A DNA stretch of 64,000 nt from Escherichia phage AV101, in sequence record OQ973471.1. One strand, given 5' to 3'. The translations under genes and the position numbers were made by a program. Below the pieces are notes generated by a model that saw nothing but the letters and a program-made list of their open reading frames with translations, ran no database searches and was not told the origin of the DNA. Each line of letters opens with the position of its first letter. Positions within the stretch are counted from its first letter, which is position 1. Of the stretch, positions 2,374-53,824 are shown in pieces.

Positions 2374-4575
2374 TTAGATTTTGATTTCTTTCTCTGTCAG
2401 TTCGGCAGTGACCTTGTACTTCACGCCATCCACTTCAACTTCCATGGTGGACTCTTCCAGGTCGAGGTCGGTGAACCAGCCGTGGCCAGCAACGATACCA
2501 TACACCACTTTAGACAGTGTCTTGTTCAGGGCACGGACTTCGGTGATGGCCGCCTTGGCAGCAGCGTCGATCCAGTTTTCGATCAGCTGTTTCTGTAAGG
2601 CTTCAGGCACGGCAGTGATCATAGGAGACTTCACGAATGCTTCGTACTCTTTCAGAGCATTGGCGATGAACAAGTCACCAGCATTGAGTTTCTTGTTCTC
2701 GGCAATCTTCTTCTGTACCGCTGCGATAGACGGTAGAGATGAAGCGCCAGCGATCTTCACGTTCAGCTCACGGCTCATGTAGAAGTCGGTAGACTCTTTG
2801 GTCTCAGTCTTCGGTGAGAAGCCGTAATCGCGGATGCCGTAGGAGGACAGGAACTCGGCCGCCTCAGCGCCGTACTGTACTGCCAGGCCTTTGGCGTTAC
2901 CCTTACCAACCAGGGCGTCTCGATAGAACTTCAGCACCTTCTGCTTGCCTTTCAGGGCTTCCAGACGGACATTATCCGCAAAGAACTGAGCAGCACTGAT
3001 GTTCTTGACCATGGCGCGGTTGACCAGCGGTACGCTTTCCAGGTTCAGGACAAACACTTCCGGACCACCAAACACGTGGACGCCCATTTCGATCAGCTTT
3101 TGTACAACTTCGATATCAGCCTTGAACGGCAGAGTCTTCACGTTAATGATACCGTCTTTGACGATGGTGTAGTTGCGCCACTGGAAGGTGTCCAGTTCTT
3201 CAGGTAGACCAAACTTCTTCTGTGCGAATTCAGGCACAGCCACAGTACCGTGTTGAATTGTACGCACACTGATGTTCGGGCGCTCGGAGTTATAGACCAA
3301 ATCACTGATTGGCACAACACCCAGATCGTTGGTAGGTTCGAACGTCGGGTTCCACTCTTCGTGTTCTGCCAGCTTGAGAGCCAGGGCTTTACGCTCTTCT
3401 TTGGACTGAGCATTCGCGATCTGTTCTGCCAGCTTGTCTTCGGTGTCGTCGGTTTTCTGCACAGTACCGCGCCCGATACTCTTATAGGAGAACATCGGAT
3501 GCTTGGTAGCAACAGGCACACCAGCTTCAGCCAGGTACGTCAGCACATCAACGACGGTCGTCGCATCTTCAGCCGGAACCAGGTCATAGTCAATACCGTC
3601 AACACCGCGCAGCTGGTCGTCAACGATGGCCTGGGTCAGATCGTTCTTGATGTTGGAATAGTCCTGCTTGGTGAAGCAGTTGCTGTACTGTTTGATGAAG
3701 CGGACGTCGCCCGTCTTCTTCAGCGCAGCCCAAACCAGATCTGCGTCCATAGTGTGTACACCGTAGAACGCCAGCACGTATGCCGCCTGGATGTCCGTCA
3801 GGCTATCCATCTGGTCGATCATGTTAGGGTTTACAACCCACAGCTTGGTGACGCTCTCAGGGATGCTCACATAGCCGACCGGGTGAGAGTCATCGTCCTG
3901 TACTGCCAGCACGGTTGCCACACCGTTTTCGACGTAGATGGCATGGGTGTAGATGACTGGGACATCAACAACCACCTTCGGCACTGAAGACTTCAGTACG
4001 TTTTCCAGCTCGGTCTGATATTCGGTCTGGCCTTCGGCAAACACGTGAGTCGCGCCAGAGCGCTCGGACATCAGAGCCAGCAGTTCGCGGTTACAGTGCC
4101 AGCCGTATTCGATAAATGTAATGTTATCGAAAGCAAATGGCAGGGTCTCAGCAACCAGTAGAATTTCGTTGGTACGCCAGCAGTTGTCATACCCGTCAGT
4201 CATAAATGCCAGGTTGTTGACGTAGCCAGGTTTCTTCAGGTCACGCGCAGTATCCATCGCCAGTTTCAATGGCTCAACGAAACCAGTACAGCCGGATGGT
4301 TGCAGGAAACGGTCGATCAGTTTGTTCAGCTCGCTCAGGTCAGACGCAGCACTAACCTGGCGGCCAGCGAACACAGTACCAAAGTCGCCTTTGGAGGAGA
4401 AATACAGAACGCTCACAGTGTCTTCCGGCTTCACCAGGGATGGCAGGTTCTCCTTCAGGTGCTTGCGGACTTCAGGGAGCGCACGGTACATAGAGCCGGA
4501 AATGTCTACAACGATTACATGGTTGGACGGAGCAGCAGTCGCAACCGCATTCTTAAATTCTAATGATTCAATCAT
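2374..4575 (-). CDS. von Willebrand factor A (vWA) domain protein, about 733 aa
   Basis: N-terminal MIDAS-type motif VIVVDISGSMY (DxSxS) with downstream T/D positions; start taken at MIESLEF with AAGAGAA upstream; about 530 aa of unassigned C-terminal sequence. Confidence 0.6.
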   Translation of the reverse strand: MIESLEFKNAVATAAPSNHVIVVDISGSMYRALPEVRKHLKENLPSLVKPEDTVSVLYFSSKGDFGTVFAGRQVSAASDLSELNKLIDRFLQPSGCTGFVEPLKLAMDTARDLKKPGYVNNLAFMTDGYDNCWRTNEILLVAETLPFAFDNITFIEYGWHCNRELLALMSERSGATHVFAEGQTEYQTELENVLKSSVPKVVVDVPVIYTHAIYVENGVATVLAVQDDDSHPVGYVSIPESVTKLWVVNPNMIDQMDSLTDIQAAYVLAFYGVHTMDADLVWAALKKTGDVRFIKQYSNCFTKQDYSNIKNDLTQAIVDDQLRGVDGIDYDLVPAEDATTVVDVLTYLAEAGVPVATKHPMFSYKSIGRGTVQKTDDTEDKLAEQIANAQSKEERKALALKLAEHEEWNPTFEPTNDLGVVPISDLVYNSERPNISVRTIQHGTVAVPEFAQKKFGLPEELDTFQWRNYTIVKDGIINVKTLPFKADIEVVQKLIEMGVHVFGGPEVFVLNLESVPLVNRAMVKNISAAQFFADNVRLEALKGKQKVLKFYRDALVGKGNAKGLAVQYGAEAAEFLSSYGIRDYGFSPKTETKESTDFYMSRELNVKIAGASSLPSIAAVQKKIAENKKLNAGDLFIANALKEYEAFVKSPMITAVPEALQKQLIENWIDAAAKAAITEVRALNKTLSKVVYGIVAGHGWFTDLDLEESTMEVEVDGVKYKVTAELTEKEIKI

Positions 4576-4783
4576 TGTTCTCTTCGCCTTGTGCGTAAGG
4601 GTTAAGTTCAGACTCATCAGCGGCTTCGATGCGCGTCTTTACAGAGTCCAGCATATTGTTGATAAACTCACGAGACTGCTCCAGCTGAGCCAAGAGCACA
4701 TCCTTTGGAGCATAGTTCTGAATGCAAGCCGGAATACTTTCAGACGTCGCCTTCAGGTCGGTAAAACATTCTTTCAGTATCAT
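4568..4783 (-). CDS. hypothetical protein
   Basis: 71-aa ORF with ATG start, overlapping the vWA gene start by a few nt. Confidence 0.4.
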   Translation of the reverse strand: MILKECFTDLKATSESIPACIQNYAPKDVLLAQLEQSREFINNMLDSVKTRIEAADESELNPYAQGEENND

Positions 4784-4885: not shown

Positions 4886-6550
4886 TCAGATTTGTGAGGC
4901 CAGTTCTGTCACCAGAGGAGCGGCACGGACACGCGCATCTTCCAGCGTTTGGGTGTTGAAGAACTCGCCATCACGATACACCAGCTGGTGCTGGTTGTCG
5001 GCGTCTTGCACCTGATCAAAGGTGATACCGTCAACCAACACTAGTTTACCCTGAGAGTCTTTAATGACTTTAAGGAAACCACGCGCAGACTTTTTAGTCC
5101 CGCCTTTATCGGTCTTCGGCTCTTTGAAGATCTCACGGAATTCACCGTTCACTTTACCAGCCGTGGCTTTCACTGCTGTGCCAGTACTGTCACGGGTGTT
5201 CATCTGGTAGGTGTAGGAACCGATACCGAACACCACGTTGATGGAAGCGAAGTTCCGGTCAGCCAGACGGCTAAAGATCTGGTCTTCACGCGACAGGGTG
5301 ATAGAATCACCGTAGATCAGGCCGATGTGCTCATCCAACAGGAAGTGCCCAGTTTCAGTCTGGGTGCCACCAAAGATCTCCCACAGGCGCTGGATAGAGC
5401 CGACCGCTTCTGAACGGCTGATGATATTACGGTCATCTGCCATCAGAGAGTTGATCGTGCCTTCGCCTGTGATCAGGTGATAGGTGTTCGTCTCTTCGAT
5501 GTGGATGACTTCGGTGCTGCTGGACACGCCGCTGATGTTCAGCGTAGCGCGGTCTTTGAACCCCTCGATACGGTAGCCGCCGACGATGTGCACAGGGTCA
5601 CCAGAGTCAGGGCGGATCACGACTTTACCATTGCGCGCCATGATAATGTCTTTCAGGCGAGGCAGATAGTCGTCGATGACCTGCCAGTAATCCCACGCAT
5701 CAGACACGATGCTGACGATGCCATCAGGATACACGTCCTGCACCAGGCGGCGGAAGGTTTCGAATTCGCCATCCTTCGTGCCCATACACATCACGGCGTG
5801 TTCGGTAGCCGCAACAGAACCAGCAACGACATAATCTTCGTCGATGTCTGCGCCATAATACTCTTCTACGAAGTCCAGGGCAGGGTTGGTGTCGGTGCCT
5901 TTGAAGAACACCAGATGACCGGAACCGGAAGACGCGGCGTCATGCCACCCGCTCATACCACGGAAGGAGAAGTCGTGGCCTTGGTAGTCGATGAACCAAT
6001 GGTCCGGTGATACTCCCGTAGCGAGGGCAGCTTTCACCATCAGTGCCTTGTAATGCAGAGCGATGGTGGCGTTCGTCATCGGCTTCCAGATCTCAGAGCT
6101 GAACACAGTCTCCAGATAGTTGGTCAGCCAGTAGAACTCCGGCAGGGTATTGAACATCACATACACCGGAACACCATACGGACACATGGTGCCTTCAGGC
6201 AGCGCACGGACTTCGATAGGCAGGTAGCCGAGGTCATGCAGGGCTTCAATATGCTCTGTGCCGACGCGGCCTGGACCCAGGACTTTGTTCATGCGACGGG
6301 CATACTTCTTCAGCACCTTGGTCTTCGGGCGCTGGAAGAATGCTTCGTCAAACAGTTCGTGGAACCAGGTCATGAAGCCCTGGATACCCCAGACCACCAC
6401 GCCGTTCTTCGGCAGGTGAGAGTTGAAAAGTTTGTTAGAGCGCGGAGTTCCGTTGGAGAACACCAGCTCACTGCCTTCAGGGAACTGATAGATGTGCCCC
6501 GATTTGTAGAAGTCGATCGCATGGATTGGGTCTAAGTGGCGCATGCTCAT
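4886..6550 (-). CDS. nicotinamide phosphoribosyltransferase family protein (Nampt/NadV-like; possibly Namat of an NAD+ reconstitution pathway)
   Basis: 554-aa protein with strong Nampt-family resemblance across its length (MSMRHLDPIHAIDFYKSGHIYQFPEG... GHDFSFRGMSGWHDAASSGSGHLVFFKGTDT); 4-nt overlap with the upstream PRS-like gene. Confidence 0.85.
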   Translation of the reverse strand: MSMRHLDPIHAIDFYKSGHIYQFPEGSELVFSNGTPRSNKLFNSHLPKNGVVVWGIQGFMTWFHELFDEAFFQRPKTKVLKKYARRMNKVLGPGRVGTEHIEALHDLGYLPIEVRALPEGTMCPYGVPVYVMFNTLPEFYWLTNYLETVFSSEIWKPMTNATIALHYKALMVKAALATGVSPDHWFIDYQGHDFSFRGMSGWHDAASSGSGHLVFFKGTDTNPALDFVEEYYGADIDEDYVVAGSVAATEHAVMCMGTKDGEFETFRRLVQDVYPDGIVSIVSDAWDYWQVIDDYLPRLKDIIMARNGKVVIRPDSGDPVHIVGGYRIEGFKDRATLNISGVSSSTEVIHIEETNTYHLITGEGTINSLMADDRNIISRSEAVGSIQRLWEIFGGTQTETGHFLLDEHIGLIYGDSITLSREDQIFSRLADRNFASINVVFGIGSYTYQMNTRDSTGTAVKATAGKVNGEFREIFKEPKTDKGGTKKSARGFLKVIKDSQGKLVLVDGITFDQVQDADNQHQLVYRDGEFFNTQTLEDARVRAAPLVTELASQI

Positions 6551-7401
6551 TTTACACGTCCTGTATTTTCAGTTTTGAAAGGAAGCCCGTCGGCGGTGAT
6601 GTTCTCCCACCAGACAGTGTCGGCATACACAGCATCATAGATCCCGTCGAAAACAGAGAGACCTTTGCTGAAGATGCCATGGGTAACGAAGAGCGTCATG
6701 TGCTTAGGCTTGTGCTTCTGAAGCTCTTTGCCTAACTCAACGAACGTGCGCCCACCGTCGCAGATATCATCGACCACCACCAGATAGCGGTCTTTGATCA
6801 GTTCAGGGTTTGTAACACTCACCCCAATGATCTCACCAGTCTTGGTATCGCGGTTCTTATGGCCGTAGACAACAGGAACACCGTCCAACGATAGGCTGAG
6901 GGCTTCGGTCTTCTTAGTCGCGCCGCCGTCAGGAGCTACCAACACAGCGTTGTTCCCACGGATGAACCAGCCCAGATACTGACGCACGATGTAATCTTGC
7001 GGGACAACATGAACGTTGTTGATCAGAGAAGACACAACATGGCTGTGAGGATCTTTGATTACCACGCGGTCAAAGTTCATGCTATTGATGAATTCAGCCG
7101 CCCACTTCACAGACAGAGGCTCACCGAAGTCACAATGGCGGTCCTGGCGAGCATACGGGAAGTAAGGGATATACGCATGGAATGTCGTCAGACGGTCCAC
7201 GTTACTCAGACCACGAACGGCGTTTACCAGAAGCGCCAGCTCAATGAAGTCGGCTGATGATTTGATGTGAGCATCAATCACCACGTTCTGAACGTGGCCG
7301 ATAGGGATACCAGACTTTTGGATCTTGATATGTTCCTCACCACCTGGGAAGGTGAAGTGTTTGTAGAACACATCTTGGTCGTTCAATTTCAAACGAAACA
7401 T
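6547..7401 (-). CDS. ribose-phosphate pyrophosphokinase family protein (PRPP-synthetase-like; possibly ADP-ribose pyrophosphokinase Adps)
   Basis: PRPP-binding loop YLVVVDDICDGGRTF and PRS-like N-terminal half; GAGG RBS; co-oriented and overlapping with the Nampt-like gene. Confidence 0.8.
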   Translation of the reverse strand: MFRLKLNDQDVFYKHFTFPGGEEHIKIQKSGIPIGHVQNVVIDAHIKSSADFIELALLVNAVRGLSNVDRLTTFHAYIPYFPYARQDRHCDFGEPLSVKWAAEFINSMNFDRVVIKDPHSHVVSSLINNVHVVPQDYIVRQYLGWFIRGNNAVLVAPDGGATKKTEALSLSLDGVPVVYGHKNRDTKTGEIIGVSVTNPELIKDRYLVVVDDICDGGRTFVELGKELQKHKPKHMTLFVTHGIFSKGLSVFDGIYDAVYADTVWWENITADGLPFKTENTGRVK

Positions 7402-7750: not shown

Positions 7751-8056
7751 TCACTTAAACGAGTCAACGGTGGATGTAAGAATTTCGGGGGTGGGTTTGG
7801 CGTCTTGTGGTTCACGGAAACCCACCTTTGCGATGCGGTCCAAGACATTGTACACTTCGCGCGGAAGGGTGTCTACGACCGTGTCCGACATGAACACCAC
7901 GTCTTCTTGGATGGCGTTGTATTCAGCCAGTTTAGCCAGTTCTGATTCTACCAGGGACTTCAGCTTTTGCAATGGGTCGTTGCAATAGTTGAGACGGTTG
8001 CAGTTAGTGAGCGCCTGAGTTAGATTCTCAAACGCTTCTTGTATTTCCTTTGACAT
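7751..8056 (-). CDS. hypothetical protein
   Basis: Internal ATG start MSKEIQEAFENL; 101 aa, helical and acidic. Confidence 0.45.
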   Translation of the reverse strand: MSKEIQEAFENLTQALTNCNRLNYCNDPLQKLKSLVESELAKLAEYNAIQEDVVFMSDTVVDTLPREVYNVLDRIAKVGFREPQDAKPTPEILTSTVDSFK

Positions 8057-8438
8057 TGATATGTGCCTCGTATTGTTGACAGACAACAACTACTTTACGG
8101 CACATGTCGATATCGAACAAGCCAATATGACACTCACGCTTCTTTATCCCCAGCTTATGCGCCAGCCAACTGTAAGCGTCGCTCCTGCTCCTCTCTCCGC
8201 TTTTCCACAATGGGTCAAACGATCTATGGGCTTCCTGCTTAGCAGCACGGAGAGCGGCATTCGCCATCCTTCCCAGAGGTTGTCTGCCGTCGCCATGGGC
8301 ATGGCAACCGACACGGGCATCACATGGAGTGCACACCCAGAACTTCAGATTGCGGAGGTCAGGGCGATGAGGGTAGAGAACATCACCACCGACGAATTCG
8401 GCTGGGAGGCCACAGTAATCACATATAACAGGTTTCAT
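8028..8438 (-). CDS. cysteine-rich (zinc-ribbon-like) protein
   Basis: CDYCG...CTPCDARVGCHAH cysteine/histidine clusters; listed ORF start is GTG, internal ATG (MKPVICDYCG) preferred. Confidence 0.45.
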   Translation of the reverse strand: MKPVICDYCGLPAEFVGGDVLYPHRPDLRNLKFWVCTPCDARVGCHAHGDGRQPLGRMANAALRAAKQEAHRSFDPLWKSGERSRSDAYSWLAHKLGIKKRECHIGLFDIDMCRKVVVVCQQYEAHINVKGNTRSV

Positions 8439-8498
8439 ATTCTTTGTCCAAAAGAAACCCCGCACATGGCGGGGTTGCTCAGGCTGAGGTCAGACAGA

Positions 8499-8870
8499 TT
8501 ATTTCAGGAGTGCTTCCAGTTCTTCAACAGATTTGCTTTCCAGCTCTTGCTGTTTCTTACGCTGGATCAGCTCCAGGATAACCTGGTTGTTCGCCTTACG
8601 CTCTGCCGCTTCTCTGCTGTCGTCACGTTCTTTCAGCTTAACGCCGATGATGTGCTTGACAACGTCGAAGCGCAGCTGCAGTTCGGAGTCAACGTTGCTT
8701 TTGGTACCAATGAAATCTTCTTCATCGGTTTCTGCTGCTTTCACCTGACGGCTCAGACCTTTCGCCATTTCGTTCAGGGCAGTCAGGCTCAGGTCCCAGA
8801 CCTGCTCAATAGACAGCAGACCTTTGTTAGACTCGAAGCGCAGTTTCATACGGGTTGCTTTATCAAACAT
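8499..8870 (-). CDS. hypothetical protein
   Basis: 123-aa ORF, ATG start, GAGGA RBS 9 nt upstream. Confidence 0.5.
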   Translation of the reverse strand: MFDKATRMKLRFESNKGLLSIEQVWDLSLTALNEMAKGLSRQVKAAETDEEDFIGTKSNVDSELQLRFDVVKHIIGVKLKERDDSREAAERKANNQVILELIQRKKQQELESKSVEELEALLK

Positions 8871-8914
8871 TTTACTATCCTCAATGATGAATGGGTTACA
8901 ATTTCAAATCAGGT

Positions 8915-10933
8915 TTAGAACACAACTTTCACAGTGCGGTTGAACGAACCGCTCACCTTCACGAACACGTGGTTGCGTTGGGTGGTAGAGAAGCCCAGAC
9001 CGGACAGCTGCTCAGTGCTTGGCTGTACTTTAATCTTACCACCTAACATTTCAAAAACCTTGCGGTGTTTATCAAGTTCCGGCTTCAGATATTCGTTATA
9101 GAAACCACGGGTGCCGACAGGGTTAGCACAACCTTCCAGGATGAAGAACACGTGCTTGTTGCCAGTCTGCTCGCCGTCCCAATGGTTTGGTGAGTTCAGA
9201 ACCAGCTGTACCTTCTGGAAGACGGAGGTCTTGATGCCCCAGATTTCCTGAGAGCGAGCGTCGTCTTTCAGGGTAGAACGGATGTCTACCACTTGTCCAG
9301 CGCGGACATCAATCACAACAGCCAGAGTGCGATCTTTGTGCTTCAGGCCAGGATGCGAAAAACGCTTGGTCTGGCCTTTGTATTCAACTTCGATTTCGAA
9401 GCCCATATCACAGGTTTCACGCTGGCTGAAGTTAGTGACATAGAACTCGTACAGACCATCACGCAGCTTGCGTTCATCGCTGAAGAAGATGTTCTCCACC
9501 GGACGGCGGTTTGGATCAATGCCGTCCATACCGTTCATGTCGATGTCTAGAGTTGCGCCAGTTGTCGAACGACGGTTGTGATAATACACGTGGTTGTGAA
9601 GAGGATCGTTCAGGCTCAGATCCAGGTCGTCGTTGTTATGCCAAGCCAGTGACACACGGAGGAAGCTGTCGACATTGCCGCCTGCGGTCTTCACGCGCTC
9701 TTTGATGGAGTCGGCCACTTCGCCATTGTACGACCAGCTGAAGCCGTTGTTCCACTTGAACAGGTTAGGAGCGCCTGCGGTGGCCGGAGCGATCAGGGAC
9801 ATCAGGTTGCCAATGTGAGAGTTTTCGACCAGCACTTCCAGGGAATGCGCCTTTGGCAACACGTTGGTCAGGAAGTCGTCGATCGTGATCTCTTCAACCT
9901 TGTCCAGGGACTTGGTCGGAGTCTTCACTTCAGACGCCAGCTGAGCAAACGGGTCCATCTTCTTCTGAGCTGCTAGGTCGGCGAACAGAACGTTGTTGAT
10001 GGTCAGATCGTCATACACGGCATAACGGCGACCCAGTGAATCAGTCAGACCCAGCGCTTCGACTTCTTTCTGCGCGTTTTCAATCATCGACTTCGTGACC
10101 AGCGCGGTTGGGCGCTTGTAGTTCGTCGGAGCGACTTTGGCTTCAAAGGACTTCACGGCGGTTTCCAGATCCCGACCTTCATTGAGGTCTACCAGCAGAG
10201 AGCCAATCACGGTATTACGAATGCCGTGAGGGGTATGACCGTTTGCACGGTAGCCAGTGCGCCAAGCCCACAGAGCGCGTTTCTCTTCTGCAGTTTGTTC
10301 GTACAGGGTCTTGTTCACCACGAACGCCTGCACTGCCGCTTTGTGCTCTTCACCGCGATACAGAGAATTCTGGTCAATCAATTCAAGAACGATTTCAGCC
10401 GATTCCAGAGACAGTTCACGCAGGCCGCGCTCAAACACTTCAATCGCCTGGCGGATTTCACCCTTCTTAGAAGCGATGGTATCTGCCCGCAGAACATAGC
10501 TGCTCAGCAGGTCGGTGTGGAAGTGGTTGTAGGTGCGGACAATACCGTCTTTCATTTCGTGATTCGACCCAACACCAACTTTCTTGGTGTCGTTGAAGTA
10601 CACATCGACGATTGCGTGCTGCTTAACATATGCTGACAGCGCCGCAGCGACAACGTCGTATTCGTTACCCAGCTGAATGTTATCCCAGATAGAGATCACG
10701 TTCAGGTCGGAGTCGATGGTGACCACACCGCCGATATTACGGATGAATTGTTTACAGCAGGTACAGTCGTGTTCGGTACGCTCACGATAAAGCGGGTTAG
10801 TGCCAGCAGGGAAAGAAGACAGATACAGATCCCACAGAGCATCTTTATCGATGTTGGTCATGAACAGACCAGTTGCTGACATGGCCAGCACATTATTGTT
10901 TACGGCTACTGCGAAGGGCTTAAATTCTGACAT
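8915..10933 (-). CDS. large uncharacterised protein (672 aa)
   Basis: Long ORF with AGGAAG RBS; N-terminal HDCTCC cysteine cluster; no family recognised by eye. Confidence 0.6.
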   Translation of the reverse strand: MSEFKPFAVAVNNNVLAMSATGLFMTNIDKDALWDLYLSSFPAGTNPLYRERTEHDCTCCKQFIRNIGGVVTIDSDLNVISIWDNIQLGNEYDVVAAALSAYVKQHAIVDVYFNDTKKVGVGSNHEMKDGIVRTYNHFHTDLLSSYVLRADTIASKKGEIRQAIEVFERGLRELSLESAEIVLELIDQNSLYRGEEHKAAVQAFVVNKTLYEQTAEEKRALWAWRTGYRANGHTPHGIRNTVIGSLLVDLNEGRDLETAVKSFEAKVAPTNYKRPTALVTKSMIENAQKEVEALGLTDSLGRRYAVYDDLTINNVLFADLAAQKKMDPFAQLASEVKTPTKSLDKVEEITIDDFLTNVLPKAHSLEVLVENSHIGNLMSLIAPATAGAPNLFKWNNGFSWSYNGEVADSIKERVKTAGGNVDSFLRVSLAWHNNDDLDLSLNDPLHNHVYYHNRRSTTGATLDIDMNGMDGIDPNRRPVENIFFSDERKLRDGLYEFYVTNFSQRETCDMGFEIEVEYKGQTKRFSHPGLKHKDRTLAVVIDVRAGQVVDIRSTLKDDARSQEIWGIKTSVFQKVQLVLNSPNHWDGEQTGNKHVFFILEGCANPVGTRGFYNEYLKPELDKHRKVFEMLGGKIKVQPSTEQLSGLGFSTTQRNHVFVKVSGSFNRTVKVVF

Positions 10934-11052
10934 GATGTAGTCTTCCTGTTTCAGTTCAAATGTGCGCCCCGTTTGCCAGGGCGCTTCGTTTAAGTGAGGT
11001 CAATAATACGTTGAAAAAAGTTATTGAAGAATGAAGTAAAGGGAATCTTTAT

Positions 11053-11277
11053 TCAGACGATCTTACCACCGTCACAAGGCCGAGTATCACCGGAGTTGTA
11101 TGCCAGCATCCCCTGCATCAACAAACGTCTTGGCCCAGAAACTGATTTCTGTTTCCTCAACGTACTGCAGAACCGAGTAGTGCCTGGGTAAGGAGTGTAC
11201 ACGAGACGACCTTGCATACGAGCTTCCAGTAGGAATTCATCTGTGGCTTTGCGTAACTTGAATAATTTCCAGCTCAT
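11053..11277 (-). CDS. hypothetical protein (doubtful)
   Basis: 74-aa ORF with ATGA overlap to the HNH gene stop; no other support. Confidence 0.25.
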   Translation of the reverse strand: MSWKLFKLRKATDEFLLEARMQGRLVYTPYPGTTRFCSTLRKQKSVSGPRRLLMQGMLAYNSGDTRPCDGGKIV

Positions 11278-12203
11278 TTTTCACCCTTGTATCTTTTTAA
11301 CCATTTGACGCATTTTAATGGTTCCCACCCTTTATTGAAACGTTCGATAATGCTGTTTGTCGCATTAAAAGCCTTCAAATCCTTTGTTCCGTACACATGC
11401 ATGAGGGCTTCCGCTCTTTTCATCGTCTTCAAAGATTGCATAAGCAAATCAGCTTTTGACCAATACACATCATTTTCGGGGTTCCATTTCGCTTTCTCCC
11501 AAGGCAACTTCACTAACATACCTTTCTGGGCGTTTTCTTTCTGTTTGGCTCGTTGTTCCGGTGTGAAAGAATTGGTTAAGTCCTTCCCATAATTGGGATT
11601 GAGTTTCCCGAGTTTTGCTTGTCTAGAACGCTCCGAAAATTGCTTCAAATCTGTATTGGCGCGACGCCGCTCTAAAACCTGCCTTTTATATTCAGGGTCA
11701 GAAGCCATTCTTTCATGGATTTTCATCAATCCTTTGGTAATTTTCTTGACTTGCTCTGGAGTTCTCTTATATCCATATTGGGGGTTATTCTTTCCTCTCC
11801 TTCCGTACATTGGGTTGTCTTTACCCACAAACCGAGAAACCCCTTTCCATTGTAAAGATAGTTGTTCGCTGAATTTAATTCTGAAACTTTCATATAAATG
11901 AGAATTAAACCGAATCCCCGATTTATTTCTTCTTCCCCCCTTTCTCATAGCCACCACAGCATACACCATTCTCGTGTTTGGGAAAGCCAATGCCAAGCAC
12001 AAATGCACAAGATAATGTTGCCTGCCTGTTAATCGAACCAAATTGTTCTTATCTTTAAAATATTCAGGGAACATGCTCTTGGGAAGGATGTGGTGTAATT
12101 CAGTGTAGTCACCATCAGAATATTTGAAAGATTGAACCATCCTCAAATACTTCTTGATGAAATGCGGTTTACCGCCTTTAGAAACCAACAATTCATAAAA
12201 CAT
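11274..12203 (-). CDS. HNH homing endonuclease with NUMOD3-like repeats
   Basis: HNH core ELHHILPKSMFPEY...NLVRLTGRQHYLVH; repeated GKDNPMYG / GKNNPQYG / KLNPNYGKD motifs; AT-rich codon usage unlike neighbours. Confidence 0.8.
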   Translation of the reverse strand: MFYELLVSKGGKPHFIKKYLRMVQSFKYSDGDYTELHHILPKSMFPEYFKDKNNLVRLTGRQHYLVHLCLALAFPNTRMVYAVVAMRKGGRRNKSGIRFNSHLYESFRIKFSEQLSLQWKGVSRFVGKDNPMYGRRGKNNPQYGYKRTPEQVKKITKGLMKIHERMASDPEYKRQVLERRRANTDLKQFSERSRQAKLGKLNPNYGKDLTNSFTPEQRAKQKENAQKGMLVKLPWEKAKWNPENDVYWSKADLLMQSLKTMKRAEALMHVYGTKDLKAFNATNSIIERFNKGWEPLKCVKWLKRYKGEK

Positions 12204-12264: not shown

Positions 12265-13464
12265 TTACTTTTTAAATAAATTTAGCAGGTTTTTAGAACC
12301 AGATGTCGTCGCTTTAGGTTGTCCTTCCCCATCGTAACCAACCTTCCCGCGCGGTTTTTTGCCTTGGTTGACGGCTTCTACACAACGGGTATATTTCGAC
12401 AATTCACAAAAGTGGTTCTCTAATTGTTGAACATTCATACACTGATCCCAAGGCTCTTCGGCCGACCAAAATTCTTCCCTGTTATACCCAAGAGGACCAT
12501 AAACTGCGTCCTGATTATCCCGTAGCCAGAAGATGCATTCTTCGTGGGTCATACCGTCTTTGTTCAGGAACATCAGGTCGATGCCTGCGCGACAGCCTGG
12601 TCCAGCAACCGTGAAGTGGTTCTCGCTGAAAGGATATCCAGGAATGTACGTGAAATCAACCCAGATCTGATAGGCCAGGAATGGACCAAGCCCTTCGATG
12701 TCGTCATACATGCGCTGGTATACTTCCAGAGGAGTACCAAGGCGCAGCAAGTCATGGAAATAGTTTGGATACTTGTTGACGAATGCCTTCAGAGAACGGA
12801 TAACACGCATCGGCATGTATGGTTCCCATCCCTCGATGGTATATTCACCAGGATTCTCTTCGACCAGCTTTTTGGCGACCTTGTAGTCCATCTCGTCCAC
12901 AATACCCTGGCCAACGCGATACACTTTCACCATCATCCCACCGAAGCACTGCTCCTTGTGGTTGACAACCATCTCAGGGAAAGCCAGGCATTGCTTCAGG
13001 CCGCCCGTGTTGAAGGCATTGGTGAATACCTTACCACCGTCGGCCTCGAACTTCTGAAGTCGTTCGCGGGTTGCATCGAGGTTGATCTCGGCGAATTCTT
13101 TGATCGTCATCGCGCCGCCGATAGCCTGGATTGGATCCCAGAGGTTGAACATGCGGAACATCACGCAGTTGAACATCTTGTCGGCCATACCCAGAGCATC
13201 GTTGTTGACGATGTTGTTGATCAGGTTGAGAGACTGTCTGTCGTGCTCTCTCCGGACGTTACAGAATTTAACCTGGCGTAGTATGGGATTATCAGTCCAA
13301 GGAGCAGGAAGGCGCTGGACGTCCTTCTTGACGTGGATCTGATAACGATCGCGCATCCATTCGTAAGACAGGCTGGTATGGGTCGGACTGAGAACCGGTT
13401 TGGCCGACTTTATCTTTTCTTCACGGACACCGCAGTACGGGACGTCCAGGGCTTTATCTTTCAT
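12265..13464 (-). CDS. hypothetical protein (399 aa)
   Basis: ORF with AAGAGGA RBS; sits where T4 has DNA polymerase gene 43 relative to regA. Confidence 0.6.
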   Translation of the reverse strand: MKDKALDVPYCGVREEKIKSAKPVLSPTHTSLSYEWMRDRYQIHVKKDVQRLPAPWTDNPILRQVKFCNVRREHDRQSLNLINNIVNNDALGMADKMFNCVMFRMFNLWDPIQAIGGAMTIKEFAEINLDATRERLQKFEADGGKVFTNAFNTGGLKQCLAFPEMVVNHKEQCFGGMMVKVYRVGQGIVDEMDYKVAKKLVEENPGEYTIEGWEPYMPMRVIRSLKAFVNKYPNYFHDLLRLGTPLEVYQRMYDDIEGLGPFLAYQIWVDFTYIPGYPFSENHFTVAGPGCRAGIDLMFLNKDGMTHEECIFWLRDNQDAVYGPLGYNREEFWSAEEPWDQCMNVQQLENHFCELSKYTRCVEAVNQGKKPRGKVGYDGEGQPKATTSGSKNLLNLFKK

Positions 13465-13482
13465 GGTATCCTCTTAGAATAC

Positions 13483-13512
13483 GAAAACAGAGGCCATTAT
13501 AGCCTCTGTTGT
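13483..13512 (-). terminator. rho-independent terminator
   Basis: Hairpin ACAGAGGC-TATAATG-GCCTCTGT followed by TTTTCGTATT on the minus strand. Confidence 0.5.
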
Positions 13513-13532
13513 TTAGTGAATAACCGTATATC

Positions 13533-14405
13533 TTAATCGATACGGGTCAGTTGGGTGATAGATGATTGCACTGGGCTGGCCACATAGATACGGACGTTGG
13601 CTTTCCATTCACCCCAGATCAACGGCAGAGTTGGGAAGTTGTCTTCATTGAAAACAAACACGGGAATGTAGCTCTCGACTGTTTCGCCAGAGAACGCCTG
13701 AAAGCCCATCTTGGTGTATCCCATGATCTCGTCAATAAAATCGAACGGAGCGAAGGCAACACCAGCGTGTTCGTTAGAACCGAGCTGGCCTGGAATGGCC
13801 GTGCCCGTCAGAATGATTTCGGTGATCTGGCGCTTAGGCTCGGTGGTCAACATATCAGAGAAGTCAGGCTCTTTGAAGGTTGCCATGTTCTTCAGGAACT
13901 TGCCAGCCGGGTACTCTTTGCCGTCGACAGTGATGGTGTCCACCACTTTGATGCACGCCTGAGGGAATTCCCCTTCGATGCGTAGACTTTCGCGTGGGAA
14001 TCCTTTGTTATAGTAATACTCCAGCGCTGGAACAACTTCACCTTCATTGCGAACGAACTTGCTCATGTTAGAGGCATACACGCGTTGTAGGCATTCGTCA
14101 CCGTCGAAACCAGCAATATGAGCCACACCGTCGTTGACAGTGGTGATGTCGCCCTGGGCATCCATGATCTGGCGCATAATGTCTTTGATGTCGACAACAA
14201 CGGGTTCTTTCAGGACTCGCGGAGATGCAGTGAACTCAATTTTCACCTCGTGGTCGAAATACACCGCTTCCAGCAGTTCACGGGTTTCTTCCAGCACCAG
14301 TTTCGCCTGATTGCGGATCTTACCAAAGTCAGGCGATGTGACGTCGCCCTTTGCATTACCGAAAGCCAGATTCAGATTCACGTTCTTAGAAAATGTAGTT
14401 GTCAT
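13533..14405 (-). CDS. hypothetical protein (290 aa), possible MazG-like NTP pyrophosphohydrolase N-terminal region
   Basis: LVLEETRELLEAVYF resembles the EExxE..EA helix of MazG/HisE-type enzymes; weak, by eye only. Confidence 0.45.
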   Translation of the reverse strand: MTTTFSKNVNLNLAFGNAKGDVTSPDFGKIRNQAKLVLEETRELLEAVYFDHEVKIEFTASPRVLKEPVVVDIKDIMRQIMDAQGDITTVNDGVAHIAGFDGDECLQRVYASNMSKFVRNEGEVVPALEYYYNKGFPRESLRIEGEFPQACIKVVDTITVDGKEYPAGKFLKNMATFKEPDFSDMLTTEPKRQITEIILTGTAIPGQLGSNEHAGVAFAPFDFIDEIMGYTKMGFQAFSGETVESYIPVFVFNEDNFPTLPLIWGEWKANVRIYVASPVQSSITQLTRID

Positions 14406-45940: not shown

Positions 45941-46469
45941 TATACAACCAACCGAGGAATAGAAAGAAATAAGCCCGAAGGGGCTTTGATTATCTTTCTG
46001 TGGTGGCCTCAGCAGAAGCCGTACATCAATTATTTGCCATCGTTCAGGTCTCCCAGGTACACTCGGACGCCGTTGATACCTGACGCCGAAGAAATCAGAA
46101 TTTTCAGAGTACTATCGACGTACACCGCCCAACTGGATGTTACCAGACAACGCATAAGTTGGCATATTGACCTCAACGTTCTTTAGTCTATTGCCTATGT
46201 CATTGTTTGAATCTAGGAGTTCTACCAGAGTCTCTTCCATTTTCTCCCTTTCCCTCGATTCACGGGTTTTGGTTTTCGAAAATGTTTCTCAGTCTCTCTT
46301 CGAGTCTGGCTAGAGTTACGTTATCTGGTTCATTTCCCATAGGGATTTTCTCAGGTTAGTTAAGTCGGAATTGACTGAAACAGTCTACCTAATGACTTGT
46401 TTGTGGTACAACAAAACCCCCTCCCCTCATGGGCTTCGAAGATTAAATACTTTTTCTAATGATAAAAAT

Positions 46470-46496
46470 AACCCCGCCGAAGCGGGGTTTTTGTTA
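46470..46496 (-). terminator. rho-independent terminator (UUCG tetraloop)
   Basis: AACCCCGC-CGAA-GCGGGGTTTTT. Confidence 0.6.
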
Positions 46497-46497
46497 G

Positions 46498-48699
46498 TTA
46501 CTGGATAACAATACTACACTCCATATCTGAAACAACACCCGCATTGCTGTATGTTGTAATAGTCCATGATGTTGTTGATGTTTTATTAACAACAACATAC
46601 CGTCCAGTACCAGGTGAAGAAAAAGTGTAGCCCGCGCGTGACATATCAGTAGGGAAGTTGATGACCCAAATACCAACGGATGATTTAGTCGCGGTACAAC
46701 CAGCAGCAAGAGCAAGCGCACCAGAAGAGTTGATATTAACTACGCACGGTGAACTTACCAGCTTAACCACACCAGAGTCGAGAGTATATGTATCGTAAAC
46801 TGTGCCGATGCGGTTCATCCCAAGATATGTCACCGCAGAAGAAGCCAATCCCGCCCGGTTACGTAGCACGACAGACACCCCAAGACCTGAGCAGTTAGTA
46901 ACTTGCTGGTCAGAAACCATACCGGAAGTGGAACTGTATTGTTCAAGAACTGCGTCAACCGTGTTTGATCCGTTGTAGCAATTGAACGTTACATTTTCCA
47001 ATCTGTTTCTGCGCACGCTTTTCCCAAAATCAGACCTAACATTACATATACGGTTATATTGCCCAGGGGTATTAATGGTGACCATACCTCCACTGATAAC
47101 GTTATCTAAGCAGTCTGTTAAAGAAATTTGATGGTCAAAAAATCCATATGCGCTCTTGAAGTCGCCGTTGTTCTGCATGAATATCTGAACGTTTTCGATT
47201 CGGTTATTGCTGCACCCCTGTAAAGCCACCACGTGGTCGTTACCGTTAAATGCTCCATTGGAAATACTGGTAAACTTACCGCCGATGATTTTGCAGTTGG
47301 TGCAGCCTCTAGAGAATTTAATATTATTATTACCGCCTACGGCGCCATCAACACTCCCCAAAACGGATGAATTCATAACGCCCTCACAATCTATGAATTT
47401 AAAATCCGTGGTCGGGAACCCAGTGCCATCTGCGGATGTAGCATGGTAGTTTATTAGTAGCCCGTTTTCTGCGTACCCTTCAGATACATATCCACCTTTA
47501 ACACCTAGAACCTCCATATTCCCCCCGGCTTTAGGCTGCCCAATGAAGCGAGGAAATGTAATCTCGGGATATAGTGCACCAATTAATACAAAATTACCGT
47601 GGTTTGGACCCTTGAATCCTGTGTTATCAAATGTGCAACTATTGGATCTTACACCTACTCGACGAGAAGAATCTGATGCGCCATAGGCTGTATTACCCAT
47701 ACGTAGAGGGGTTACTTCTGTGGATAGCGTGGTAAAGTAAATACCAGAGACTTCGGTATAATTTCCTGTTAACTCCACTGCACCTTTTGTTTGGTCGAAA
47801 GATGACCCGACCAATGTTATTATACCACCGCGACCTATCAATCTACGGTTATCAAGATCACTGATAACATTACTTGATAAAGTCACATTAATGTCAATAT
47901 AAACTGTTTTATAGTGAGTAATCAGTACATATAGCAAAGAGCTTACATCGTCACCCTCAGCAGCCCATGCTGATATAAAAGTATCAACGTCATCCTCTAT
48001 TTTTTCAAGGTAAACAATTGTAGAGTCAATTGTCATGGTTTGATCACTTATTGACCCTATAACTCCAGATACTTCTGGCTTAATTCTGTAGATACCAGAA
48101 TCAGTATTAACAAATGACGTACCAACTGGAACTGTACCTCCAACCTGTGCAACTGATGAGATATCTAATGGGTAAACGTTACCGCCAATAACTTTATTTC
48201 TCATATCATTAACGTCACATCGAAGTGAAGCATCCCCAACACTAATCCACGCTCCTAAACCTTCTCCACCCGTTGACCCTGGAGTTGTGTCAGCAGGAAC
48301 TACTTTAGGCAGTACACCATCCCATCGGTACTTACCATCAGTAAATACAACCAGTTCATTCTTAGTATTAACTGTTACGCCCGTAGAAAATGATCCAGGT
48401 AGGGTTACATACTCTTCGCGGGTAACAGCTAGTGCACCCAAGTCCACATTACCAGCAGAGTGAACTAATACCCCAGTAGGACTAAGGCTTACAGCAGTAA
48501 CCCCTGAACCAATGTCAGCAGGTAGGGAATAAGCCCGTTGTGACACTTTGTCATAGATGACTTTATAACCGCTTAGTACAGCACCCACCGAGAAGTAAAC
48601 AACCTCGGATTGTTTAACCCCAAAGTGTCGGGCCACTGCTTGTTTATTGGTTAAGATTCCGGTTGAACCTTTACCACCTTGTGAGAACATTTCGTTCAT
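46498..48699 (-). CDS. tailspike protein (733 aa) with shared N-terminal module
   Basis: N-terminus (GVKQSEVVYFSVGAVLSGYKVIYDK...GKYRWDG) also found in the 648-aa and 1102-aa proteins; Gly/Asn/Thr/Ser-rich C-terminal body. Confidence 0.8.
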   Translation of the reverse strand: MNEMFSQGGKGSTGILTNKQAVARHFGVKQSEVVYFSVGAVLSGYKVIYDKVSQRAYSLPADIGSGVTAVSLSPTGVLVHSAGNVDLGALAVTREEYVTLPGSFSTGVTVNTKNELVVFTDGKYRWDGVLPKVVPADTTPGSTGGEGLGAWISVGDASLRCDVNDMRNKVIGGNVYPLDISSVAQVGGTVPVGTSFVNTDSGIYRIKPEVSGVIGSISDQTMTIDSTIVYLEKIEDDVDTFISAWAAEGDDVSSLLYVLITHYKTVYIDINVTLSSNVISDLDNRRLIGRGGIITLVGSSFDQTKGAVELTGNYTEVSGIYFTTLSTEVTPLRMGNTAYGASDSSRRVGVRSNSCTFDNTGFKGPNHGNFVLIGALYPEITFPRFIGQPKAGGNMEVLGVKGGYVSEGYAENGLLINYHATSADGTGFPTTDFKFIDCEGVMNSSVLGSVDGAVGGNNNIKFSRGCTNCKIIGGKFTSISNGAFNGNDHVVALQGCSNNRIENVQIFMQNNGDFKSAYGFFDHQISLTDCLDNVISGGMVTINTPGQYNRICNVRSDFGKSVRRNRLENVTFNCYNGSNTVDAVLEQYSSTSGMVSDQQVTNCSGLGVSVVLRNRAGLASSAVTYLGMNRIGTVYDTYTLDSGVVKLVSSPCVVNINSSGALALAAGCTATKSSVGIWVINFPTDMSRAGYTFSSPGTGRYVVVNKTSTTSWTITTYSNAGVVSDMECSIVIQ

Positions 48700-48719
48700 A
48701 TAAACCTCTTTGTTTTTCT

Positions 48720-48746
48720 AGTAAACCCCTCCGAAGAGGGGATTGT
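48720..48746 (-). terminator. hairpin terminator (UUCG tetraloop)
   Basis: CCCCTC-CGAA-GAGGGG. Confidence 0.5.
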
Positions 48747-51050
48747 TTAATTACTAATCTTACCACGTATGGATAGCTCAAGAGCGCCAGTTGATACACC
48801 TGCTGCGTTAATTTGGGTTCTTGAACCATTTGCCGTTTTATAAAAGAATTCTATAGAGCTGCCGTTCAAAACAGCTATTACCCCAATGTTGCTTTGGTTG
48901 ATGTTCCCAAAGCAGGAATTCTGGCTTGGTTCTGATGTAGGCCCAAAATAGCACTTAAGTCCACGAGGCAGAGTAACGGATAACGAACCCGAAGGGCTGG
49001 AAATTGCCGTCACATTAATAAGTAAAGAAATGTCTATGTGTTCACCGTCTCTGCGTAAACTATATGTGCCGGAAGAAGTTATTCCTACGCCATTGAATGA
49101 TATGCTTCCTGTAAGATTGCTTAAATTACCAGCGATATACTCAGGGAGCCTAACAAGGTTAGTAAACAATGTATCTTGATGACCAGAGTCGTATGATGCT
49201 CTTTCAACAATTAACTTAGATGGATTTATTACATCTGCAATTTCAATCTCATTTCTGGCAGACTCTCCTTTAAAATACACCAAAGCCATGTTTGTGTTTA
49301 CGTCTTCCGGATGGATCAACGCATTCCCCGCTATTATCTTATTACGCCAACCCTCTATGTAAAACCCTACACCACCGTTTGATCTACTTGAGCCAAGTGA
49401 ACTGTTAATTTTTGTCACAGTGTCTGCGTAAGGTCTAATGAAAGTTGAAGCGCTACCAGAAATGAGAAACGGTATTTTACACTGCATATTAGGGTATTTT
49501 TGGGATGAATCGGTTGAAGTTACAGGATAACCCCACGGGTGAGGGTTGATAAAAACTGTACCACTACCTTTTACATCGTGAATTCCGATACCGTAAGCGA
49601 CGGTTACTACATCTTTGAACGTTGAATCGGTTACATTAGAACGGAAACCGATCTTCTCTGAATCCTCCCATGCGTGAATCCATGATAAACATTTGTCGAT
49701 TACTATTTCGTAACCTTTCCCAGAAACCCCTCCAACGTCAACCCCACCGTTAAGAAAGCCGAAAGTTTGTAGATTGCGTATATACACATTAGCTATGTCG
49801 GTAATTACTACTCCTTTCGAAGCAATATGCTGGTCAGTGTAGCCGGAAGGCTCTCTGTTCGCGGTGTATGTTAAGGTTAGTCCCGTAACAGAGGCAGACT
49901 TAGCATTATTAAACACTCCATTTTCTGTAGTAATAATATAAGCAGCGTTCTCTGTGTTACTTTGCGCAGTGGTAAAAGTGTAATTCCCGGAAGGGGAAGC
50001 TATGATTCTACCTGTGCATAAAACATTCAAACCATCATAGTGTATGACACTTGAAGATATATTGTAGTCATTGGCAAGCAACACGCTCTTATTATTTGAA
50101 CGAGCATATGCGTATGCCTCATTTATCATAACGGCCCAGTCAGTTTCCCCTGGATGATTTTCATAGAACTGTTCTGGAGTTACGAATCGGAAAGAGTCTT
50201 TTAACTTAACAAGAGATTCTTCAACAGTGTCACCGGAGCTAGTATGAATCATACTTGACCCAGTATTGGCAGCAAGTTCACTCTTCAACTTGGCAGCCGA
50301 ATCAGGCACTTCAACTAGAGGGACTGTAATAGGACCAGGATTATAGGTTAACTGCCCATTGGATACGGAGCCAATATAGACATTGGACGGTAACGACGGC
50401 AAGCCATAAGACTTCTGTTCATTAACAGAGTAAACAACCTTCTTACCATTGAGGGACTGAGTAGTATCAGTGCTGAGAATTACTTCAGAGTCTTTTACAT
50501 TAGCTGCACGAGCGATTTCTTGAATACTTCGGTCAAACAACGGACTGATATTCGGTTGTTTAACAGACATTTCAGCGACTACCCAAACGCCTGCAGTCAG
50601 CGCGGTTTGTAAAGACACTTTCCCTGTCGTGCTGTTATAGGAATATTCAATTTCGGGTGTTTTGTACTCACCACCGATATAAAGAGATTGGACTCCATAA
50701 GATGTGTAATCAGGAGTGAACTCGGTTTCACCTCCTATAGCCTGGAACTTATAGATTCGAATCCCGGTTTTATAATCTTCTGGAGACAGAATCTTATCAA
50801 ACAGACAGAACACAACATCACCTTTGGACAATGCGCGTCCGAGATTCAACGTATTTCCATCGATTTCAAAGTTGTCTAACGGAACTTGCATACCACCGTT
50901 GATTGTGACTATACCAGTGACAGGGTAGAAAGGGAGGGAGATAAACTTCTCTCCGCCCGTTGCTGTGTAAGTGTATGGAATCTGGTGCGGAGCTGTTACG
51001 ACCGCTCCAAAGATGCTCTCGACGTTTCTGGTCATTTGAAGATACCCCAT
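48747..51050 (-). CDS. tailspike protein (767 aa)
   Basis: Contains the VKDSEV linker-type segment shared with the 1102-aa protein; beta-rich body. Confidence 0.75.
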   Translation of the reverse strand: MGYLQMTRNVESIFGAVVTAPHQIPYTYTATGGEKFISLPFYPVTGIVTINGGMQVPLDNFEIDGNTLNLGRALSKGDVVFCLFDKILSPEDYKTGIRIYKFQAIGGETEFTPDYTSYGVQSLYIGGEYKTPEIEYSYNSTTGKVSLQTALTAGVWVVAEMSVKQPNISPLFDRSIQEIARAANVKDSEVILSTDTTQSLNGKKVVYSVNEQKSYGLPSLPSNVYIGSVSNGQLTYNPGPITVPLVEVPDSAAKLKSELAANTGSSMIHTSSGDTVEESLVKLKDSFRFVTPEQFYENHPGETDWAVMINEAYAYARSNNKSVLLANDYNISSSVIHYDGLNVLCTGRIIASPSGNYTFTTAQSNTENAAYIITTENGVFNNAKSASVTGLTLTYTANREPSGYTDQHIASKGVVITDIANVYIRNLQTFGFLNGGVDVGGVSGKGYEIVIDKCLSWIHAWEDSEKIGFRSNVTDSTFKDVVTVAYGIGIHDVKGSGTVFINPHPWGYPVTSTDSSQKYPNMQCKIPFLISGSASTFIRPYADTVTKINSSLGSSRSNGGVGFYIEGWRNKIIAGNALIHPEDVNTNMALVYFKGESARNEIEIADVINPSKLIVERASYDSGHQDTLFTNLVRLPEYIAGNLSNLTGSISFNGVGITSSGTYSLRRDGEHIDISLLINVTAISSPSGSLSVTLPRGLKCYFGPTSEPSQNSCFGNINQSNIGVIAVLNGSSIEFFYKTANGSRTQINAAGVSTGALELSIRGKISN

Positions 51051-51140
51051 AGAGGATTTGCCAATATGGGGTATTTAGTCTGAACTAATAAATTTATGAA
51101 CAAAGGTATAACAAGAACCGCCGAAGAGGGGGTTTGATTT
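51036..51140. repeat. about 100-bp duplicated upstream cassette, copy A
   Basis: Near-identical to 53518-53632; includes CTAAATACCCC (as GGGGTATTTAG), an ATACCCCAT/ATGGGGTAT inverted repeat and a terminator hairpin. Confidence 0.7.
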
Positions 51141-51330
51141 TACTCTCCAAAATCACGATCCTGTCTTCCCTTGCCTGATTATCAAACAGAGTCTTCAATC
51201 GTTCCTCCAGTCTGAATAGGAACAGTTCACCTGATTCATTCATAATATTACCGTAATTGTACCCCAATGAGGCCGTATCATAGGATGGCTCTTAGATAAT
51301 GCTTAGTATGATGGGATACATCCATACATA

Positions 51331-51546
51331 GTGTCTGGCACTATATCTATAGCAGGAACTCTTAGCTATAGCATATACCTTACACATCAGACGGTAATGT
51401 TCTCCGTTGTTAATATATTTTCAGCCATTTCAACTAAAGAAATGATGACAACATATGCATTACTTACAACCGCATTAATTTCGGCTGTGATAACAATGAT
51501 CGTATCGATACTTCTGTACAACAAAGTTGAGAAAAAGTTCATATAA
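51331..51546 (+). pseudogene. C-terminal remnant of an acyltransferase-3 family (O-acetyltransferase-like) membrane protein
   Basis: LSYSIYLTHQTVMF resembles the AT3-family SYSIYLWH motif, followed by a hydrophobic helix; AT-rich; no ATG start (GTG in frame); plus strand within the minus-strand tailspike cluster. Confidence 0.4.
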
Positions 51547-51551
51547 TAACA

Positions 51552-51575
51552 AGGCCCATTATCGGGCCTTTTGTT
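51552..51575 (+). terminator. rho-independent terminator
   Basis: GGCCC-ATTATC-GGGCC followed by TTTTGTTTAT. Confidence 0.5.
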
Positions 51576-53521: not shown

Positions 53522-53632
53522 GATAATACCCCATAAAGGATGACCAATATGGGGTATTTAGTCTGAACTAATCAAATTTATGAACAAAGGTATAATAAGA
53601 ACCCCGCCAAAGCGGGGTTTGACACTCCTATT
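53518..53632. repeat. about 100-bp duplicated upstream cassette, copy B
   Basis: See copy A. Confidence 0.7.
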
Positions 53633-53799
53633 CCAGACACATTTCAAAATATATACCAACATCACCCCACCCATCATAAACAGACGACCCCGATATTCTT
53701 GATATCATCTATGACAACCTGAGAGAGCCAACAGCATTATCAATTAGGGTAATGCAAACAGTAAACTCTATATAAAAAGTATTATTAATAAGTAAAACT

Positions 53800-53822: not shown

Positions 53823-53824
53823 AC

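Follow-up and report, generated by a model that had tools for sequence, protein, structure and literature searches.

The window, by which we mean the whole 64,000-nt stretch of DNA that was analysed, belongs to an Ackermannviridae phage as judged by DNA similarity, the nearest records being Escherichia phages vB_EcoM-RPN242 and YX22. The ORF listing of the window gives an ATG-initiated reading frame of 672 aa on the minus strand, and a gene for a small helical protein follows 44 nt downstream (Table 1). The preliminary description placed the large frame among small proteins and a zinc-ribbon protein, between an NAD+ operon and an HNH endonuclease, and these surroundings are confirmed by the ORF list together with Pfam and PHROG matches. 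The phage NAD+ reconstitution pathway NARP1 consists of Namat and Adps (bioRxiv 10.1101/2024.02.11.579819); in the window the Namat-like and Adps/Prs-like ORFs overlap by 4 nt, and their gene pair looks like NARP1 in architecture. Two small ORFs and the gene for a DUF3268 zinc-finger protein are likewise present. The GTG start listed for the latter falls within the terminator hairpin of the upstream two-gene unit, so that its true start is probably an internal ATG (MKPVICDYCG...). The HNH/NUMOD3 gene is missing from the closest relatives, since matches to YX22, LHE287, A221 and fGh-Ecl02 stop at about 11056; it therefore appears to be a mobile element that was inserted recently, with the 74-aa ORF on one side and the gene for a 5-hmdU DNA kinase on the other.

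Further neighbours are this 5-hmdU DNA kinase (PF18723, E 3e-79), the MazG-like pyrophosphatase that it adjoins, and RegA. A thymidine-hypermodification toolkit including 5-hmdU DNA kinase and MazG-like protein is expected of Ackermannviridae. Downstream of the NARP1-like genes lies a protein of ~750 aa, whose counterpart in Dickeya phage RC-2014 bears the annotation of a von Willebrand factor type A domain protein and, after it, an acyl carrier protein. Elsewhere in the window, G+C falls to 0.39-0.43 at about 46000-56000, as compared to 0.47-0.53 in the remainder, with strongly negative GC skew; this stretch may be horizontally acquired or a tail-spike region. Antisense and alternate-frame ORFs around the locus (e.g. 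8061-8918, plus strand, 285 aa) are shadows of conserved genes.

Table 1. Genes, protein domains and signals at the locus, in window coordinates.
Feature	Position	Strand	Description
~750-aa protein	about 2374-4617	-	downstream of the NARP1-like genes
Namat-like gene	4886-6550	-	Pfam hit; 554-aa NAPRTase-family protein
Adps/Prs-like gene	6547-7401	-	Pfam hit; 284 aa
DUF3268 zinc-finger protein	8028-8465	-	
Intrinsic terminator	8446-8476	-	8-bp stem, 6 G-C pairs, then T-run
Partner gene	8499-8870	-	123 aa, acidic; predicted small beta-hairpin, then long helical hairpin; PHROG 2018
DUF8224 gene	8915-10933	-	672 aa, 75.6 kDa, pI 6.0, predicted soluble
C-terminal alpha/beta domain, aa 563-672	8918-9247	-	from alignment and AlphaFold2 model
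TerD-like beta-sandwich insertion, aa about 420-562	9248-9676	-	W-x-N-x-D-D-L-D, L-D-x-D-x-N and E-N invariant
Alpha/beta core domain, first half, aa about 300-415	9689-10036	-	from alignment and AlphaFold2 model
All-helical domain, aa about 150-295	10049-10486	-	from AlphaFold2 model and alignment
N-terminal alpha/beta domain, aa 1-145	10499-10933	-	AlphaFold2 secondary structure; E-R-x-E-[HY]-D-C-x-x-C loop
HDCTCC motif, aa 55-60	10754-10771	-	from translation and alignment conservation
Upstream intergenic region	10934-11052	-	119 nt; GCGCCC...GGGCGC hairpin, AGGAAG ribosome-binding site
74-aa ORF	11053-11277		
HNH/NUMOD3 homing endonuclease	11274-12203	-	
5-hmdU DNA kinase and MazG-like pyrophosphatase	12265-14405	-	

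The frame had been described beforehand as a large, well-supported ORF for an uncharacterised protein to which no family could be assigned. The first of these statements is borne out. The phrog_1735 profile aligns over positions 1-673 of 673 with residues 1-672 (E = 0, 1015 bits), full-length homologues number in the thousands, and dN/dS against Ackermannviridae relatives of 71-97% identity amounts to 0.11-0.17, about 0.12, which indicates purifying selection. A Pfam scan of the protein gave no match, the Pfam set scanned being one without PF26675. This accession, which is DUF8224, is however precomputed on all full-length homologues down to 48% identity, and homologues 97-99% identical to the protein bear it. 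By these matches the 672-aa protein is assigned end to end to Pfam DUF8224 (PF26675) / PHROG 1735, with which it has length, domain order and invariant motifs in common. The statement on the family consequently holds for families of known function and fails for catalogued ones. The term uncharacterised stands, as the DUF8224 family carries no assigned function, and a literature search for PF26675, DUF8224, phrog_1735 and TerD-like phage proteins found no paper on it. Within this catalogued family the gene is an ordinary member, and not a local oddity beside NAD+ genes.

DUF8224 is a broad family. An exhaustive HMMER search of 1.84 billion representatives, with clusters at 50% identity, detected at least 4,700 DUF8224 clusters (4,732 at E <= 1e-3, 1,228 at E <= 1e-30), nearly all of them 650-690 aa long and aligned over the full length. 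By tblastn, 556 of 50,697 phage records contain a family member. Essentially all Ackermannviridae are among these, together with Cronobacter, Klebsiella and Pectobacterium phages of about 145 kb, Caulobacter phiCbK-like phages, large Bacillus cereus myoviruses, Vibrio and Xanthomonas phages, roseophage DSS3_PM1, Microcystis phage MaMV-DC and a Pseudomonas jumbo phage. Members are scattered over many unrelated large lytic phages and some bacterial chromosomes, mainly of Micromonosporaceae, and sequence identity across phyla is ~40%. Database records name the homologues 'hypothetical protein', save a few 'DNA-directed RNA polymerase' and one 'serine protease'. The polymerase label is found in the records of Salmonella phages Se-B, Guerrero and pSC20 (locus L001, 4162-5681). 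The protease label, on the homologue of Pectobacterium phage PcCB7V, is supported by no search and probably stems from the Ca2+-binding jelly-roll common to subtilisin-like proteases.

Two forms can be distinguished. The long form is defined by a TerD-like insert and by a helical partner of ~125-130 aa encoded immediately downstream on the same strand; with its insert and its 123-aa neighbour, the window gene is of this form. A second large PF26675 subfamily comprises a short form of ~530-550 aa (PaMx74 gp08, Moabite gp254, Xoo-sp2 gp18), in which the TerD-like sandwich is missing. Short and long forms have aa 8-399 in common (hhalign probability 99.7), and the C-terminus of PaMx74 gp08 is homologous to the C-terminal domain of the long form (hhalign E 8e-5). 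The short forms of Pseudomonas phage PaMx74, Serratia phage Moabite and Xanthomonas phage Xoo-sp2 share the C-x-x-C, RPTA and SLxRRxA motifs, and the E-R-x-E-[HY]-D-C-x-x-C motif is retained in short-form relatives. They commonly lie between ribonucleotide reductase and PNKP-phosphatase/DNA-ligase genes. Within DUF8224, the insert is an optional element and a core of ~510 residues the constant one.

The domain anatomy was derived from an alignment of 35 homologues (48-96% identity, mean column identity 61%), which contains more than 100 invariant positions, and from an AlphaFold2 model built on this alignment (mean pLDDT 83). Invariant columns of the N-terminal domain are E51, R52, D56, C57, C60 and H137. 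The HDCTCC cysteine cluster pointed out in the preliminary description is present, yet only D56, C57 and C60 are invariant in it; H55 alternates with Y and C59 is variable, so the conserved core reads E-[HY]-D-C-x-x-C. The protein has five cysteines in total, and the invariance of C57 and C60 makes them a candidate metal ligand pair. The helical domain carries invariant R169, Y192-R193-G194, R239 and Y272/R274, the last in a KVAPxNYKRPTA loop. In the model, the following alpha/beta domain is split, with the beta-sandwich between its two halves (aa about 300-415 and 563-672); R302-R303 are invariant in the first half, and the motifs SPNxW, GNxH, C602, RGxxNE and QxSGxGF in the second. No hydrophobic segment was detected, and the protein is predicted to be soluble.

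In the model, the insert has the beta-sandwich fold of TerD and is TerD-like in this sense. Its motifs follow a parallel order, DDLDL...hIYFxNxxS...GGxLDVDMN as compared to DFDLDAS...FIFYNNLKS...HTGDN in TerD, and the invariant residues D435-D436-L437-D438, L462-D463-x-D465-x-N467 and E480-N481 resemble the TerD Ca2+ motifs without reproducing them. Where TerD, a family of tellurite-resistance and Ca2+-binding proteins (PF02342; PDB 2kxt, 2qz7), has a GDNxTGEGDGDDE calcium loop, DUF8224 has LD[VI]DMN and a distal E-N. TerD is a free-standing protein of ~190 aa, whereas the sandwich of DUF8224 is an insertion inside a protein of 670 aa. PF02342 did not match the whole protein, and on the isolated C-terminal half no Pfam family was hit even at E <= 10. 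When the insert alignment was compared by hhalign with the TerD sequences 2kxt/3ibz, E was 0.23 over 12 columns, which is not significant, and the protein is for this reason not filed in the TerD family. Membership in PF02342 was rejected despite the fold. The ter operon partners of TerD systems are likewise not found beside DUF8224, as neighbourhood analyses revealed no accompanying TerB, TerC, TerY or TelA genes.

The gene directly 3' of DUF8224 in two distant metagenomic phage contigs encodes a protein of 36-44% identity to the 123-aa partner. A partner HMM was searched over all fetched DUF8224 loci, 81 from phages and 80 from bacterial genome assemblies. The partner was found in 156 of the 161 long-form loci, and the other five end within 350 nt of the gene. 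Among the phage loci it is on the same strand in 80 of 81, downstream in 79 and upstream in one (L028); at the sole phage locus lacking it, just 204 nt of sequence remain. The bacterial assemblies have it in 76 of 80, the four misses ending 48-344 nt past the gene. Near the short form it was not detected within 4 kb at any of the six loci examined. TerD-like insert and partner thus co-occur strictly across the long- and short-form loci examined, and this strict co-occurrence is the basis on which an interaction of the two may be inferred. Partner homologues bear neither names nor Pfam domains, and generic helical hairpins such as uL29 are all that the predicted partner fold matches.

In the window, the 44-nt spacing and the strong intrinsic terminator at 8476-8456 after both genes make the pair a bicistronic unit. 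A promoter scan of the intergenic region upstream of the DUF8224 gene gave no confident site. An Rfam search over the 3' end of the partner gene and the terminator returned RsmY far below threshold (19.5 bits against a gathering score of 57, E 0.078). DUF8224 and its partner form a self-contained two-gene unit, which moves among large lytic phages and occasionally into bacterial chromosomes. No source searched mentions the partner gene or the TerD-like insert of DUF8224.

Clustering of the neighbouring genes at the 81 phage and 80 bacterial loci revealed no third conserved gene. The next commonest neighbour families in phage loci are confined to Ackermannviridae-like genomes. Shadow ORFs also occur inside DUF8224 in many loci and misled a length-greedy ORF caller; the 'conserved' alternate-frame ORFs in this clustering were rejected as shadows of the DUF8224 gene itself. 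Homologues of DUF3268 lie within 10 kb of DUF8224 at 15 of the 81 phage loci, of which L031, L032 and L046 are distant ones. Across 50 diverse phage loci the Pfam-matched neighbours are genes of DNA replication, repair or nucleotide metabolism, including ATP-dependent DNA ligase (3 proteins), UvrD-type helicases, DnaB, topoisomerase, SSB, HU, PD-(D/E)XK and 5'-3' exonuclease. Such genomic company loosely points to nucleic-acid or nucleotide metabolism. Concerning the NAD+ genes, Namat and Adps homologues are present within 10 kb at only six of the 81 phage loci, among them two from distant phages (L047, L069), so adjacency to an NAD+ operon is not a family trait. The functional tie to this operon suggested by the preliminary description is unsupported. 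NARP1 and DUF8224 have no sequence or fold relationship; they are adjacent in the window and in a few relatives, and both are non-essential phage auxiliary genes.

Chromosomal copies were studied at 26 loci in Micromonospora, Actinoplanes, Salinispora, Dactylosporangium, Enhygromyxa, Bradyrhizobium and a Lacrimispora MAG. Their flanks encode MFS transporters, oxidoreductases, sigma factors and regulators; phage or defence genes were not found in them, and no flanking family occurs in more than six of 143 proteins. The copies of Micromonospora and Salinispora fall into one cluster at 90% identity with 279 members, and even inside Micromonosporaceae the cassette appears mobile. Upstream of the Micromonosporaceae copies (loci L123-L163), an element of ~80 nt is conserved ~90 nt 5' of the gene (about 7910-8000 in the locus sequences). 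It is ordered as CCGGAAAnnCGTTTCTCCG, ~20 nt, then TAGGATCTCCGGTGATCAAGGAGG and a GTG start. Within the element lies an inverted repeat resembling a hairpin, in which at least one change (L137) appears to be compensatory, and a CTCC...GGAG pairing spans the ribosome-binding site. LexA and RecA-NDp boxes are absent upstream of the actinobacterial copies, and an Rfam search upstream of one of them matched no family.

Dickeya phage RC-2014 (L166, NC_025452, 4001-5381) keeps DUF8224 only as residues 1-267. Its deletions also removed the partner, the DUF3268 gene, Adps and residues 1-445 of Namat, and annotated gene fragments remain. Judged from this genome, the DUF8224 module is dispensable in RC-2014, in line with the earlier designation of the gene as accessory. 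Split or truncated copies occur in several other records. In CsCl-purified virions of the Vi01-like phage Sajous1, 3 and 1 spectra were reported for gp179 and gp180 (PMC10892097), each of which is labelled 'putative DNA-directed RNA polymerase'. These genes are positioned between clamp loader and vWA protein, and they probably represent a split DUF8224 homologue present at contaminant level in virions.

Profile and structure searches assigned no function. Pfam, NCBIfam and PADLOC yielded no match to the complete protein or to either half, and neither DUF8224 nor its partner matched a PADLOC-DB 2.0 family at E <= 1. Sequence searches of the PDB, run with the protein alone and with a profile of 35 sequences, remained at chance level (BacB E 0.15, RING finger E 0.12), and Foldseek against the PDB gave no hit below E 0.05, its matches being confined to PLAT and MmpS sandwiches. 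The core of ~510 residues has no recognisable solved relative in these PDB sequence and Foldseek searches. ADP-ribosyltransferase, macro, Nudix and ligase folds, which had been put forward as candidates beforehand, were not found as fold or profile, nor was a phosphodiesterase fold or a known toxin fold. The searches also gave no polymerase or structural signature. The identity 'DNA-directed RNA polymerase' was rejected, no polymerase family or structure having appeared in any search.

We tentatively propose that DUF8224 may be a metal-dependent accessory factor, enzyme or binding module of nucleic-acid or nucleotide metabolism, whose insert docks the partner; we consider this reading possible, short of probable. 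The core would combine the N-terminal E-x-D-C-x-x-C/His site, the arginine-rich helical domain and the split alpha/beta domain, and would act in a metal-dependent manner in the DNA and nucleotide metabolism of the phage. The protein evolves slowly even though its hosts range from enterobacteria and Bacillus to cyanobacteria and actinomycetes, and this, together with the invariant Arg, Asp, Glu, His and Tyr residues and the Cys-x-x-Cys/His site, points to a universally conserved ligand. This ligand may be rich in phosphate, such as nucleic-acid ends or a nucleotide-derived metabolite. The TerD-like insert would bind Ca2+ or another divalent cation and may offer the helical partner a docking or regulatory site. 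As a whole, the module would be auxiliary and not essential.

Enzymes acting on small-molecule immune signals are typically well conserved and can show the same conservation, and NARP1 loci attract such genes. DUF8224 might thus be a counter-defence factor, as had been suggested in the preliminary description. It would then neutralise a bacterial immune system, possibly via an NAD+/ADPR-derived or other nucleotide signal and together with its NARP1-like neighbours. A precedent is RyDEP, an anti-defence enzyme whose gene is inserted at NARP1 loci (bioRxiv 10.64898/2026.05.28.727677). The mainly phage-borne and patchy occurrence among unrelated lytic phages, the joint loss with NARP1-like genes in RC-2014 and the two distant phages with NARP1 genes nearby are consistent with such a role. 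However, NARP1 genes accompany the family at few loci, the searches found neither the folds expected of such enzymes nor PADLOC matches, and the bacterial copies, with their own conserved upstream region, lie among ordinary metabolic and regulatory genes and not in defence islands or prophages. The literature searched does not name DUF8224 as an anti-defence protein. This role finds no specific support, and we regard it as unlikely.

Alternatively, the TerD-like domain could be the functional centre, and during infection the pair would sense or buffer Ca2+, other divalent cations or envelope stress. An ion or stress role has been proposed for bacterial Ter proteins and jumbo-phage terD genes, and actinomycetes, which keep the DUF8224 module, are rich in TerD-domain proteins. 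The fold with its conserved acidic motifs agrees with this idea, and some phages carry canonical terD genes at high expression (PMC12880540; bioRxiv 10.1101/2025.10.29.685362). Yet a large subfamily, the short form, is entirely devoid of the insert, and the core is what the family conserves. Neither the Ter operon proteins nor a membrane segment go along with DUF8224, which makes an ion or stress module quite unlikely.

A strictly two-gene arrangement with variable flanks in phages and bacteria, mobile even inside one bacterial family and lacking any other conserved neighbour, would also suit a selfish or conflict cassette. Large effector and small neutraliser would then form a toxin-antitoxin, abortive-infection or superinfection-exclusion pair. 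Such systems are not usually conserved at >90% identity across Micromonospora and Salinispora and at ~40% across phyla. Since short forms moreover occur without any partner, and PADLOC and the fold searches brought up neither a match nor a known toxin, we hold this origin to be very improbable. Finally, a virion or assembly component or a non-canonical RNA polymerase, for which the labels of a few GenBank records and the few spectra of the so-named Sajous1 proteins might speak, is hardly credible.

DUF8224 ranks among the larger phage protein families without assigned function, and the phages that carry it infect enterobacteria, Bacillus, Caulobacter, Vibrio, Xanthomonas, roseobacters and cyanobacteria. 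The family itself was already catalogued; new here are its obligate partner and the TerD-like insertion. For the window, the idea that the DUF8224 gene belongs functionally to the NAD+ operon is corrected. Several handles for experiments on DUF8224 are at hand: the partner gene, the insert that tracks it, the short forms without insert as natural controls, and RC-2014 as a natural deletion mutant for loss-of-function comparison. It is conceivable, at a level as tentative as that of our preferred reading, that DUF8224 and its partner constitute a two-subunit phage system which has so far escaped recognition, with a novel biochemical activity, a core fold without solved relative and a regulatory, Ca2+-binding TerD-like insert. 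If true, this would add a new nucleic-acid end-processing or repair activity, or a new class of enzymes which destroy or recycle a conserved nucleotide-derived immune signal, in the form of a two-subunit system that Micromonosporaceae and some Myxococcota would have domesticated.
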